Positions 5,224 to 6,204 of a stretch of DNA of 7,540 nt are shown in pieces. This DNA comes from a virus. Its lineage: Duplodnaviria; Heunggongvirae; Uroviricota; Caudoviricetes. A program made the position numbers and the translations under genes. Position 1 is the first letter of the stretch. Every line of letters starts with the position of its first letter. The notes beneath the pieces were generated by a model. It was not told where the DNA came from, searched no databases, and saw nothing but the letters and a program-made list of their open reading frames with translations. The stretch is taken from the IMG/VR virus record IMGVR_UViG_2660238573_000002; one strand, given 5' to 3'.

Positions 5224-5250
5224 GGTCGCAGAGGTGCGGCCTTTTTTATT
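5224..5250 (+). terminator. Rho-independent terminator downstream of cI
   Basis: 7-bp stem GGTCGCA/TGCGGCC (one G-U pair) with loop GAGG at 5224-5241, followed by TTTTTTATT. Confidence 0.6.
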
Positions 5251-5259
5251 GAGAGTGGA

Positions 5260-5320
5260 TCTTGAACGGAAATTCTCAAGACTTGAGTCTTGCATGCAAA
5301 TCAATTCCTGGATAAACTCG
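5260..5320 (+). promoter_or_regulatory. Cluster of dyad symmetries and candidate promoter upstream of the 173-aa ORF
   Basis: TCTTGA-N10-TCAAGA (5260-5281), perfect palindrome CTCAAGaCTTGAG (5275-5287), perfect palindrome TTGCATGCAA (5290-5299). Possible -35 TTGCAT (5290-5295) with -10 TAAACT (5313-5318). The promoter assignment is weak. Confidence 0.3.
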
Positions 5321-5350
5321 ATCTGAGTCAATAACTTAGAGAGAGAGCAA

Positions 5351-5872
5351 ATGGCAAAGTCAAACGTTAGCGTGCAGGCATTCAAGGACTTCCTTGAAGA
5401 GCTTATGTCGCTGAACATAATGAAGGAGGCCACCGCTCGAAATTTAAAAAACTCATCCGCTCGCCTCTTAACGGTAGTCCAAGAAGAGGAAATGGGTGAT
5501 GTTACTCAGCTTGATGTGAATGAGCTTGCCGAGCGATACATCAACGCAACTGAGCCGAAGCCTAGCGACAGCAGCATTACTGCATATAAAAGCCGCATGG
5601 AAAGTGCAATCAAAAAGTTTGTAGCTTTCCAGTCTGGTGAAGAAATCCCATACACTCCGATTGACAAAGAATCCAGTGAGGAAAAAGATTTGACTGGCGA
5701 ACCAACAAAAGTCGAAGGCAAGGCTAATGCACTTCATACCTATGATCTTCCAGTAGTTCTTCGACCTGAATCAGGGGTTACAGTAACGATTAAAGGCATT
5801 CCTAACGATATCACAAACGAAGAAGCCGAACGCATCTCTTCAATTCTGAAGGTTTACGTTCGGCCTCAATAA
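5351..5872 (+). CDS. Hypothetical acidic protein (173 aa) in the cI-PL interval (rexAB slot); function unknown
   Basis: Uninterrupted ORF with a purine-rich leader, bracketed by terminators at 5224-5250 and 6174-6204. Appears more AT-rich than the neighbouring core genes by eye. No family motif recognised in the translation. Confidence 0.7.
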   Translation: MAKSNVSVQAFKDFLEELMSLNIMKEATARNLKNSSARLLTVVQEEEMGDVTQLDVNELAERYINATEPKPSDSSITAYKSRMESAIKKFVAFQSGEEIPYTPIDKESSEEKDLTGEPTKVEGKANALHTYDLPVVLRPESGVTVTIKGIPNDITNEEAERISSILKVYVRPQ

Positions 5873-6045
5873 TGCAAAAGCATTCAGCACAATGTCCAAC
5901 TCCCCAGTCCGACATTGATGCTGTTTAACCAGAGCCTCCAAAAGGAGCCCTTGTTAAGGTACACAATATTTGCGATGTAACCTTAGCGCGTCTGGTACAT
6001 TTTTTCAAGCGGTTGTAGGGCTGCCGCCAATATGAGAAAACACAG

Positions 6046-6168
6046 ATGTCTACATACAATTTGAATGACCAATTCGATCGAGAAGTTCATGTGAATGCCT
6101 ATGAACGGATAAGGTATGGAAATCTTGAACATGTGTGTGAGCATTATCGCTCAAGGCCACACCGCTAA
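6046..6168 (+). CDS. Possible small ORF (40 aa) immediately upstream of a strong terminator
   Basis: My own translation: MSTYNLNDQFDREVHVNAYERIRYGNLEHVCEHYRSRPHR. Weak SD. Stop lies 6 nt before the terminator stem. May instead be part of a non-coding 3' region. Confidence 0.25.
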   Translation: MSTYNLNDQFDREVHVNAYERIRYGNLEHVCEHYRSRPHR

Positions 6169-6173
6169 TCATC

Positions 6174-6204
6174 AACCCGGCCTCCATGCCGGGTTTTCTT
6201 TTCC
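6174..6204 (+). terminator. Strong Rho-independent terminator (tIMM-like) before OL/PL
   Basis: 8-bp stem AACCCGGC (6174-6181) / GCCGGGTT (6188-6195) with a 6-nt loop, followed by a T-rich tract (TTCTTTTCC, 6196-6204). Confidence 0.7.

Follow-up and report, generated by a model that had tools for sequence, protein, structure and literature searches.

A mobile prophage cassette beside the cI repressor of Stx2 phages combines a core-binding-domain protein, a structured RNA and an exchangeable microprotein

In type II toxin-antitoxin systems an upstream gene encodes a protein with a DNA-binding N-terminal domain, an acidic flexible region and a small C-terminal part, a small gene follows downstream, the promoter carries a palindrome, and tripartite variants employ a separate regulator. 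Type III (ToxIN-like) systems place an RNA antitoxin made of tandem repeats ahead of an endoribonuclease toxin, which for ToxN-type proteins measures about 170 aa. In the immI region of phages P1 and P7 (c4 antisense RNA, icd, ant), as with IsrK of Gifsy-1, an RNA is encoded in tandem ahead of a small ORF and is complementary to a site near the ribosome-binding site. The locus described here resembles each of these arrangements in part and departs from each in part.

The locus lies in a 7,540-nucleotide stretch of phage DNA (hereafter the window, meaning the whole of the DNA analyzed) that is 99.9-100% identical to Stx-converting phages. Its central 173-aa ORF, presented in the preliminary description as unknown and novel, is in fact a catalogued gene, namely H0093 of VT2-Sakai, ORF23 of Sp5 and ECs1184 of the Stx phages of E. 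coli O157:H7; it belongs to phrog_2602 in PHROGs, is carried at no less than 99% identity by 234 of the 5426 complete E. coli genomes and has been annotated ‘hypothetical’ for some 25 years. The gene sits next to the repressor of the Stx2 prophage of E. coli O157:H7, a pathogen prophage among the most intensively studied, and is one of only two genes in the early region of that prophage that could not be deleted. An in-frame, marker-free deletion of ECs1184 proved unobtainable in a lysogen of Sp5 and was taken to be lethal, an outcome that the original authors ascribed to prophage induction (PMC5155283). The design of that deletion would spare the promoter, RNA and ORF40 described below. New in the present analysis are the fold of ECs1184, the layout of its cassette, the RNA, the shuffling small ORFs and the multiple prophage contexts; together with a candidate operator, the fold turns the puzzle of non-deletability into a testable model.

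A cargo slot between cI and the end of the cI operon

The features of the region are as follows.

4196-4849, + strand: cI repressor, left border of the cargo slot (Peptidase_S24, E 1.3e-28; HTH_3; annotated cI in AP000422)
4850-5222, + strand: decayed DUF3024-family gene, frameshifted and with an in-frame stop, outside the mobile cassette
5220-5250, + strand: intrinsic terminator 1, which ends the cI transcript and forms the left edge of the shared module (stem 5220-5245, T-run to 5250)
5276-5299, no strand: three short overlapping palindromes, TCAAGACTTGA (5276-5286), AAGACTTGAGTCTT (5278-5291) and TTGCATGCAA (5290-5299)
5290-5318, + strand: predicted sigma-70 cassette promoter (-35 TTGCAT 5290-5295, 17-nt spacer, -10 TAAACT 5313-5318)
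5351-5872, + strand: ECs1184/H0093/Sp5 ORF23, 173 aa, in three segments (residues 8-94, 101-128 and 130-170)
5885-6027, + strand: structured RNA of the window type, from covariation and MFE folding
6034-6037 and 6046-6168, + strand: Shine-Dalgarno sequence GAGA and the 40-aa ORF40 (VT2-Sakai H0092)
6174-6204, + strand: intrinsic terminator 2, right cassette edge and counterpart of the post-rexB lambda terminator (stem 6174-6195, T-run to 6204)

Window positions 6174-6289 align at 87.5% with the lambda DNA directly after the rexB stop codon, a position that we take to be t_imm, the terminator closing the cI-rexA-rexB operon. This flank homology, with the VT2-Sakai annotation, places the cassette between cI and that terminator in the orientation of cI and so bears out the earlier assignment to the rexAB slot. 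The reported absence of rexAB holds as well: scans of the 173-aa ORF, ORF40 and a 44-aa ORF against Pfam, PHROGs and PADLOC return no Rex match, and only the DNA past the rexB stop is common to window and lambda. Slot, orientation, a homologous right-hand terminator and expression in the lysogen are thus shared with lambda rexAB. Unlike rexAB, the cassette encodes proteins unrelated to RexA and RexB in sequence and family, possesses a promoter of its own, is shielded from cI by terminator 1, holds a structured RNA and a microprotein, and occurs outside immunity regions too.

The interval from cI to PL is the cargo hotspot it had been taken for, since CFT073, DEC4E and lambda each carry something different there. 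A CFT073 prophage with identical cI (WP_001302016.1) and Cro proteins holds a 185-aa protein and a DUF1828 protein, DEC4E an NYN-domain gene, and lambda rexAB. The C-terminus of cI in the window is lambda-like. The adjoining segment 4850-5222 is matched by the intact 113-aa DUF3024 protein of another locus, L033, in two frames with a stop in one (tblastn); it shares about 81% identity with immunity regions of the 933W type, is annotated DUF3024 in NC_049924, and is not present in Oslo and CFT073. At a GC content of 0.444 the cassette is, as had been suggested, more AT-rich than cI (0.459), N (0.469) and the replication genes (0.503), although the difference is marginal and the OL/PL region is lower still (0.424).

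Both terminators said to bracket the ORF (5224-5250 and 6174-6204) withstand comparison with shuffled sequence: terminator 1 folds at -15.9 kcal/mol (z -4.0) and terminator 2 at -14.3 kcal/mol (z -4.8), each equaled in 0/200 shuffles. A simple terminator scan reports terminator 2 only, terminator 1 coming from folding against shuffles. The ORF between them is acidic as described (pI 4.85; 29 D+E versus 21 K+R). Homology to Salmonella phage Oslo begins at terminator 1, with the stem preserved and the loop altered, and this hairpin also lies 3' of cI-like genes in L027, L033, L038, L064, L065 and L309. On the right, a hairpin 6-13 nt past the small ORF is found in 34/34 distinct cassettes, in all genomic contexts.

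Rather than a single gene, the unit consists of protein, RNA and microprotein. Each of the 42 loci surveyed in full shows one fixed layout, in which a promoter of its own, the protein, a spacer of 147-174 nt, an ORF of 40-59 aa and a terminator follow one another; in phages the ECs1184 gene was never found traveling alone. These loci lie in immunity slots, in replication/nin-like operons and between tail genes of different prophages; a profile scan of genome contigs returns a single locus. Given a promoter-like site (predicted), the 34/34 terminators, sharp borders against Oslo and a same-cI prophage with other cargo, the cassette is an autonomous mobile moron of five parts, including a promoter with its palindrome, set between cI and the terminator that closes the cI operon. 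It is thus an exchanged, terminator-bounded unit, in agreement with its earlier portrayal as a horizontally acquired moron. ORF40, the structured RNA at 5885-6027, the cassette promoter and the decayed DUF3024 gene had all been overlooked in that portrayal.

In natural remnants, protein and promoter are lost together. One (L072) retains the RNA, ORF40, the terminator and the last 19 protein codons directly behind another gene's terminator; a second (L071) retains two-thirds of the RNA. Neither among the 42 loci nor among the 235 E. coli records was an intact promoter seen beside a broken protein gene.

The predicted promoter matches consensus at 7/12 positions and is therefore weak by this measure. 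Across loci, a promoter-like site whose -10 ends 22-35 nt ahead of the start codon is present in about 20 of 25, and scores of at least 8/12 are reached in 19/25 compared with 7.8% of background windows. The operator-like palindromes noted earlier do precede the ORF, three of them overlapping, but they are unlike the annotated OL/OR sites, and we reject them as cI operators. The 6+6 palindrome AAGACT-TG-AGTCTT (AAGACTTGAGTCTT) abuts the -35 element and occurs once in the window. Taken alone it is not statistically striking, because 48/200 shuffles hold a match with at most 2 mismatches; its weight derives from Oslo, L027 (AAGACT-T-AGTCTT) and L033 (AAGATT-A-AGTCTT), where it is conserved and keeps its place with respect to the -35. 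TTGCATGCAA is not conserved. We therefore regard 5278-5291 as a candidate operator to which ECs1184 may bind. TCAAG, considered as a protein-recognition motif common to DNA and RNA, is unsupported across loci.

The protein, the folded RNA and the microproteins

ECs1184, in which no motif had been recognized, carries at residues 8-94 a recombinase-type core-binding (SAM-like) domain whose fold matches the core-binding domains of integrases. An acidic disordered linker (residues 101-128) and a conserved beta-hairpin with one helix (residues 130-170) follow, an antitoxin-like order of DNA-binding fold, acidic disordered linker and small C-terminal module. Pfam, NCBIfam and PADLOC give no family above threshold; Foldseek, run with either of two models, finds no PDB match at E <0.1, and PDB sequences searched with a profile likewise give no match. 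The N-terminal core-binding domain of tyrosine recombinases is therefore present, while the C-terminal catalytic domain with its R-H-R-Y residues is absent, ECs1184 ending at residue 173 with no Phage_integrase match in Pfam. Compared with tyrosine recombinases and the recombinase-derived phage regulators MrpR of SPbeta and SroF of phi3T, ECs1184 is only 173 aa long, shows sequence similarity below Pfam thresholds, lacks the catalytic domain and ends in a unique beta-hairpin/helix module without a solved relative. Sub-threshold Phage_int_SAM matches occur in 11/66 family members, and one member is labeled ‘XerD’ by one source.

The RNA between the two genes comprises the following elements.

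5885-5901/5906-5923, + strand: helix P1
5928-5933/5991-5996, + strand: helix P2
5936-5939/5944-5947, + strand: helix P2a
5953-5957/5983-5987, + strand: helix P3
5958-5963/5976-5982, + strand: helix P4
6000-6005, + strand: T-run
6006-6009, + strand: invariant CAAG
6009-6014/6023-6027, + strand: helix P5
5948-5951 with 6017-6020, + strand: pseudoknot joining an internal bulge to the P5 loop, the last hairpin loop

Across seven distinct window-type sequences, 92.3% of cells are paired compared with 30-48% in slid controls, and 11 pairs are changed on both sides compared with 1-5 (0/500 shuffles); single-sequence MFE folding recovers the same helices (z -3.5). The RNA at the corresponding position of 25 further loci behaves similarly, with 88.1% paired versus 34-43% and 23 double-changed pairs versus 6-11 (0/500). 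The strands of the pseudoknot covary in discrete cognate classes (-8.1 versus -5.2 kcal/mol for non-cognate pairs), UAGCGG and CAAG are invariant and single-stranded, and the RNA abuts the Shine-Dalgarno sequence of the microprotein. Between window and Oslo, conservation is higher in the spacer than in the protein linker.

This folded RNA of about 145-150 nt has not been described before and is absent from Rfam: Rfam 15, C4 included, gives no match at E <=1 in the window or in six loci, and isolated RNA segments reach best E values of 2.5-8. A covariance model (R1) built from the 25 type II spacers of other loci finds no match in the window spacer, even with filters off. The window-type and type II RNAs are linked by position, homologous flanking genes, helix order with pseudoknot, and the UAGCG and CAAG motifs. 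A type I pattern scan added one new sequence, and an RNA-first scan for orphan copies returned, among the matches listed, only contigs already known. No tandem repeats are found in 5873-6045; tRNA-like and tmRNA-like RNAs are excluded, and the prophage small RNAs Pas, HnrS, AsxR and AgvB map to other places. The RNA family merits description as a new structured RNA even if the model proposed below fails.

Downstream, ORF40 (H0092) has been dropped from current RefSeq annotation; it differs from its Oslo counterpart by about 6 synonymous changes and 1 non-synonymous change. It belongs to phrog_21154 and has divergent protein homologues in L067 and in the Stx1 phage SH2026Stx1. Three unrelated families of 40-59 aa, mostly missed by annotation pipelines, are freely shuffled at this position, with pI values of 10.4 and 9.0 (basic) for the counterparts and 6.9 for ORF40. 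Proteins of 57 aa and 47 aa are among these counterparts. One remote homologue of ECs1184 is followed 35 nt downstream by an NYN-domain (PIN-like RNase) gene.

The cassette is active in the lysogen, as the preliminary description had anticipated. ECs1184 protein is detected in EHEC Sakai, and clear RNA crosslinking of it is not seen (PMC7618764). The Hfq-bound RNA EcOnc20 (Hfq-CRAC; PMC4104026 Table S2) falls, after coordinate calibration, at about 6010-6135, that is over P5, the Shine-Dalgarno sequence and ORF40 in the small-ORF leader.

Conditional toxicity and competing explanations

We tentatively propose that the cassette is a self-repressed module of conditional toxicity, of toxin-antitoxin or abortive-infection type, a plausible reading that could well prove wrong. 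ECs1184 would act as a DNA-binding regulator, its core-binding fold being the one with which tyrosine recombinases grip DNA, and its beta-hairpin/helix module may mediate dimerization or contact a conserved partner. Seated on the -35 palindrome, it would keep transcription of the cassette low; the structured RNA ahead of the ribosome-binding site would further gate translation of the microprotein, the putative effector, harmful if over-produced. Loss or inactivation of ECs1184 with the promoter intact would then lead to cell death or arrest. Autorepression, RNA gating and a harmful microprotein would together yield tightly self-repressed behavior resembling toxin-antitoxin or abortive-infection systems, possibly with an anti-phage benefit.

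Several observations argue for this proposal. Deletion of ECs1184 only, which would keep promoter, RNA and ORF40 in place, could not be made and was deemed lethal (PMC5155283), and the natural remnants and surveyed records contain no promoter-intact, protein-broken copy. Whatever its setting, the cassette is complete in itself, with promoter-like site and terminator. As with effectors or toxins, the downstream partner is interchangeable (three families and the NYN gene), most partner microproteins are basic, and the domain order of ECs1184 is antitoxin-like. The RNA, with its cognate pseudoknot classes, directly adjoins the Shine-Dalgarno sequence, and both the protein and the Hfq-bound RNA are present in lysogens.

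Other observations argue against it. None of the four proteins matches a toxin, antitoxin or defence family (PADLOC, Pfam, NCBIfam); ECs1184 lacks clear RNA crosslinking; the promoter is weak by consensus; and the palindrome taken alone is statistically unexceptional. A strain (150) with a 140-bp deletion lacks terminator 1, operator and promoter while retaining the genes, so autoregulation is not obligatory when read-through from cI can supply expression. In a family counting 651 representatives, many remote members adjoin housekeeping genes, with neither RNA nor microprotein, and the family as a whole therefore need not be toxin-linked. A classical pairing of antitoxin and toxin proteins is disfavored, identical C-terminal domains occurring with all three microprotein types; neutralization by protein-protein contact is thus unlikely, which leaves transcription or conserved RNA features as the level of control.

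The non-deletability of ECs1184 fits toxin-antitoxin or abortive-infection logic, and prophage induction explains the lethality equally well. On the latter reading, that of Mondal et al., ECs1184 maintains lysogeny as a second prophage regulator that represses a lytic or lethal function or supports cI expression; without it the prophage is induced or derepressed, and RNA and ORF40 are accessory. We consider this rather unlikely, since the same cassette accompanies many unrelated repressors and also lies far from immunity regions, the CFT073 prophage with identical cI and Cro is wholly without it, and the single copy of the candidate operator in the window is not at OL or OR.

Doubtful also is an element centered on the RNA, in which the proteins serve a pseudoknotted functional core, either a riboswitch-like leader sensing a ligand or protein or a 3' UTR-processed, Hfq-dependent RNA acting in trans on microprotein or host mRNAs, much as c4 RNA and icd are arranged in tandem in phage P1. 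Such a core would accord with the five or six strongly covarying helices and pseudoknot, with invariant unpaired motifs typical of tertiary or ligand sites, with discrete pseudoknot classes like antisense specificity determinants, with Hfq binding at the P5/Shine-Dalgarno region and with a spacer better conserved than the protein linker. It is at odds with the absence of any Rfam family match, with the restriction of RNA lacking an upstream protein gene, among the matches listed, to decaying remnants, and with the U-run after P2, which is missing in L062, L058 and L060 and thus provides no general internal terminator from which a small RNA could arise.

Quite improbable is the earlier suggestion that ECs1184 is itself a superinfection exclusion or defence protein that, for example, binds phage DNA through its core-binding domain with no toxin involved. 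The slot is shared with rexAB and other exclusion genes, and ECs1184 is a mobile, prophage-borne protein with a DNA-binding fold, expressed in the lysogen. However, none of 5027 PADLOC-DB 2.0 models matches the 173-aa ORF, ORF40 or the 44-aa ORF at E <=1, a protection phenotype is without published report, deletion should pose no difficulty if ECs1184 served exclusion only, and RNA and microprotein, both obligatory, are left unexplained. Very unlikely, finally, is a recombination accessory, a stand-alone core-binding protein serving a tyrosine recombinase as directionality or architectural factor: for all the integrase-like fold, Phage_int_SAM matches and ‘XerD’ label, no locus adjoins int/xis, the catalytic domain is absent, att-like repeats were not noticed, and neither non-deletability nor the linkage to RNA and microprotein is explained.

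If conditional toxicity holds, the cassette represents a new architecture of phage-borne addiction or defence modules and a lever on Stx-prophage stability. It is conceivable, though we think it unlikely, that it exemplifies a previously unrecognized class of three-component prophage module, in which, alongside a core-binding regulator, a pseudoknotted sensor or antitoxin RNA rather than contact between proteins would hold an interchangeable microprotein effector in check until phage infection or loss of the element releases it, spread across Enterobacterales prophages and beyond. Such a class would explain the indispensability of ECs1184 and could bear on the stability of the prophage and on the ecology of toxin phages.

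Comparison with toxin-antitoxin and c4 systems

The cassette shares with type II toxin-antitoxin systems its gene order, the domain order of the upstream protein, promoter palindrome, mobility and prophage-borne state, and an upstream gene that is reported not to be deletable alone. It differs in that its proteins fall in no known toxin or antitoxin family (Pfam, NCBIfam, PADLOC), a structured RNA of 147-174 nt takes the place of translational coupling between the genes, the C-terminal domain is independent of partner type, and toxicity is proposed. As in type III systems, an RNA precedes the effector gene within one terminator-ended transcription unit; unlike those systems, the RNA is free of tandem repeats, the proposed effector measures 40-59 aa (40 aa for ORF40), and an extra protein gene lies upstream.

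Compared with c4 of P1 and P7, the cassette RNA is much larger and multi-helical, has no Rfam C4 match, can form its pairing in cis as a pseudoknot, is always preceded by a gene for a core-binding-domain protein and is not followed by an antirepressor gene. In common with c4, it lies in tandem ahead of a small ORF on the same transcript, within a phage regulatory region, and carries a short stretch that can pair with a site immediately before the ORF's ribosome-binding site, the complementarity covarying in discrete specificity classes.

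Organisation and borders of the ECs1184 cassette

ORF mapping and family scans identify the window as a lambdoid immunity region, reversed relative to the lambda map. Positions 4850-6420 are 99.9-100% identical to O157:H7 Stx-converting phages (including VT2-Sakai/Sp5, an Stx1 phage, 1717, 2851, Nil2 and the PA series), and over 220 complete genomes of E. coli carry the identical segment.

Features of the window
Minus strand: ninB, a DnaB-type P gene, O, cII and cro
4196-4849 (+): cI
4850-5222 (+): decayed DUF3024-family gene, 372 bp, from cI to terminator 1
5220-5250: terminator 1, -15.9 kcal/mol, z -4.0
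5351-5872 (+): ECs1184, 173 aa, pI 4.85
5885-6027 (+): structured RNA
6046-6168 (+): ORF40, 40 aa
6174-6204: terminator 2, -14.3 kcal/mol, z -4.8
About 6336-6411 (+-strand side, right of the cassette): OL/PL
6601-6873 (+): N

The preliminary description placed an acidic 173-aa ORF between two intrinsic terminators, and both elements are confirmed; the depositors of AP000422 had annotated the downstream hairpin as the pRM transcript terminator. The protein, described there as unknown, is a long-annotated hypothetical gene product of a famous phage, namely VT2-Sakai H0093 (Sp5 ORF23, ECs1184, WP_001130059.1). The proposed rexAB slot also holds. Because window 6174-6289 aligns to lambda DNA starting directly past the rexB stop codon, the cassette sits at exactly the rexAB position. 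The lambda terminator after rexB is known as t_imm. This slot is indeed a hotspot of exchange, with other cargo in two further prophages: in one of CFT073, whose cI and Cro proteins are identical, it is filled by genes for a 185-aa protein and a DUF1828 protein, and in a lambda-like prophage of DEC4E (L306) an NYN-domain gene lies between cI and the terminator. The suggested AT-richness is weak (GC of 0.444 for the cassette versus 0.459 for cI and 0.469 for N). As for the operator-like palindromes, three short overlapping ones do lie at 5276-5299, but only AAGACT-TG-AGTCTT, which adjoins the -35, is kept in relatives.

Homology to Salmonella phage Oslo, whose cI is different, begins at the terminator 1 stem and ends just past the terminator 2 T-run. 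The terminator stems are conserved and their loops differ; identity is about 95% in ORF40, in the spacer and in the first (5') half of the gene for the protein, and the protein linker has diverged. In every genomic context, the right border is marked by one of two near-identical terminator hairpin types (e.g., window 6174-6204 and surveyed loci L059, L061 and L040), either AACCCGGC-loop-GCCGGGTT, the hairpin found after rexB in lambda, or AAACCCGC-TTCG-GCGGGTTT. Cargo exchange may use these hairpins as common recombination joints.

The decayed DUF3024-family gene is outside the module. Its segment matches 933W-type immunity regions at about 81% identity; Proteus prophages (L033, L034 and L007) have the gene at this position in intact 113-aa form, and the Stx1 phage SH2026Stx1 has a 113-aa gene there. 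On the other side of the cassette, records disagree on gene starts around N. A 60-aa ORF at 6441-6623 (+), annotated by PGAP as WP_000438343.1, overlaps both the nutL region and the beginning of N, and the N reading frame could also begin upstream, at 6529.

Protein, structured RNA and small ORF

A word-index search places ECs1184 relatives in 44 clusters in Enterobacterales, and an exhaustive profile search returns 651 family representatives at 50% identity; almost all of them are 160-200 aa long and match over their full length. The AlphaFold2 model built with a deep alignment (pLDDT 88.6) comprises four helices (residues 8-94), an acidic linker of low confidence (residues 101-128) and a beta-hairpin plus helix (residues 130-170), and contains no catalytic domain. 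Foldseek against the PDB detects no relative of the C-terminal module among solved structures. The coding region also holds a 15-nt unit repeated 2.1 times (82% match, 5497-5528), which is probably incidental.

At all 42 loci examined (IMG/VR, Oslo, one Proteus genome and the window), a spacer of 147-174 nt separates the family gene from a downstream ORF of 40-59 aa on the same strand. These small ORFs belong to three unrelated families, a 57-aa basic type (phrog_33859), a 47-aa CxxC...CGC type and the ORF40 type of the window (phrog_21154). ORF40 is VT2-Sakai H0092; RefSeq at present leaves it unannotated in Sakai and other genomes. Because it differs from its Oslo counterpart by about 6 synonymous changes and 1 non-synonymous change, it is a real gene; divergent protein homologs occur at locus L067 and in SH2026Stx1.

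Nucleotide conservation of the spacer persists even between loci whose proteins share only 35-45% identity. In the window, at L040:5517-5671 and at 24 other loci, the spacer holds a conserved RNA with a pseudoknot, about 145-155 nt long. The proposed type II model (25 spacers) has five helices, P1 to P5, and a pseudoknot joining the P2/P3 bulge with the P5 loop. The seven distinct window-type sequences share this helix order and add a small hairpin.

Pairing support for the spacer RNA (type II counts made on a sequence-only alignment)
Type II, cells paired: 88.1% (slid controls 34-43%)
Type II, pairs changed on both sides: 23 (slid controls 6-11)
Type II, covariation score: 0.29 (slid controls 0.07-0.09)
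Window type, cells paired: 92.3% (slid controls 30-48%)
Window type, pairs changed on both sides: 11 (slid controls 1-5)

For type II, and again for the window type, 0/500 shuffles matched the observed values. RNAalifold independently recovers three type II helices; the minimum free energy fold of the window spacer gives the same helices (z -3.5), and the window-type pseudoknot carries one compensatory C-G to A-U change. Pseudoknot strands pair at -8.1 kcal/mol with their own partners versus -5.2 kcal/mol with others, and at about -9.3 versus -2 to -4 kcal/mol in the three most distinct classes. In both RNA types G-U pairs fall on the + strand, which we read as favouring an RNA from that strand. 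Since the type II covariance model gives no score to the window-type spacer, the two are positional and architectural counterparts, each separately supported. Together with a third subtype, in L039 and SH2026Stx1, there are at least three subtypes by sequence with a common helix order. Rfam 15 yielded no matching family for whole loci or isolated RNA segments. The apical 20 nt of P1 (window 5894-5913, GTCCAACTCCCCAGTCCGAC) are the exact reverse complement of GTCGGACTGGGGAGTTGGAC in Oslo (L004), L035, L062 and L067, with flanks about 96% identical, which points to inversion of a short DNA segment inside the P1 hairpin; with the orientation seen in the window, A·C replaces a G-U pair.

Promoters, genomic contexts and shuffling

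Promoter-like sites scoring at least 8/12 lie within 105 nt upstream of the gene at 19 of 25 loci, versus 7.8% of background windows, and the distance from predicted -10 end to start codon is a near-constant 22-35 nt. The counterpart in the window, TTGCAT-17-TAAACT, scores 7/12. A strong terminator stands 6-13 nt past the small ORF in all 34 distinct cassettes. Type II promoters (L040-L057, L058-L062) sit within GATC-rich palindromes such as GATTCATCGATCGAT...ATTGATCGATGAATC, with CGATCGATCG in the spacer (at L048, for instance, some 140-100 nt ahead of the gene); these hold clustered Dam methylation sites and could be operators.

Some cassettes follow diverse cI-like repressors; others lie inside rightward operons, together with DnaC-like, DUF977, DUF1367, RusA-like and Dcm-like genes, or are flanked by tape-measure, sheath and tube genes. 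The types of small ORF and RNA and the C-terminal domain of the protein combine freely. In one GC-rich metagenomic relative an RNA-like spacer accompanies an ORF of the 57-aa type; further remote relatives adjoin NYN RNase, phosphodiesterase or housekeeping genes without the RNA. Beside the remote homolog P0150 (L295-L297), a gene for a 187-aa NYN-domain (PIN-like RNase) protein follows after 35 nt.

Natural variants and candidate functions

Mondal et al. (2016) made in-frame, marker-free deletions across Sp5, could not obtain those of ORF23 (ECs1184) and ORF21 (ECs1180), judged them lethal and found no domains (PMC5155283). ECs1180, an 83-aa ORF at 6932-7183 (+) just downstream of N (phrog_2471), has no family match in Pfam or NCBIfam; apart from ECs1184, it alone among early-region Sp5 genes is reported to resist deletion (PMC5155283). 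The best-supported model, which we hold tentatively, is a self-repressed conditional-toxicity module. ECs1184 would bind to its own promoter at the palindrome, translation of the microprotein would be gated by the RNA leader, and the microprotein would be a harmful effector, such that losing ECs1184 with the promoter left in place would be lethal. Among the 42 loci and 235 E. coli records, no copy combines an intact promoter with a broken protein gene, which is weak evidence because the E. coli copies are clonal. L072 keeps the RNA, ORF40 and terminator and has lost the promoter and all but 19 codons of the protein gene, which lie behind the terminator of another gene; in L071 the remnant has decayed further.

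The reported lethality could also belong to a regulator that maintains lysogeny, a reading we consider unlikely. Two other natural variants alter the cI side of the cassette. In strain 150 (L308), a 140-bp loss (5198-5337) removes terminator 1, the palindromes and the promoter and joins intact cassette genes to the cI unit; in 08-3914 (L005), IS1203 is inserted immediately upstream of terminator 1, and the deletion may be a trace of this insertion hotspot.

A reading centred on the RNA, as a sensor or as an RNA acting in trans, is comparably doubtful. Among the Hfq binding sites listed by Tree et al. (2014) is an orphan in Sp5, EcOnc20 (PMC4104026), whose old coordinates, calibrated on AsxR (offset about +137), fall at about 6010-6135, covering P5, the Shine-Dalgarno and most of ORF40. 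ECs1184 itself was detected in Sakai in a 2025 RNA-binding-proteome study as borderline RNA-associated (FDR 0.065), with a crosslinking signal no better than the GFP control (PMC7618764). Anti-phage defence, as put forward in the preliminary description, is a hypothesis only; PADLOC and NCBIfam return no matches for ECs1184, and direct exclusion by the protein is the least probable of the three rival readings.

The feature is real and, as a long-annotated hypothetical gene of a famous phage, ordinary. ECs1184 nevertheless belongs, as its visible part, to a widespread cassette of protein, RNA and microprotein; the RNA was previously undescribed, and the first gene is reported to be non-deletable in the lysogen.
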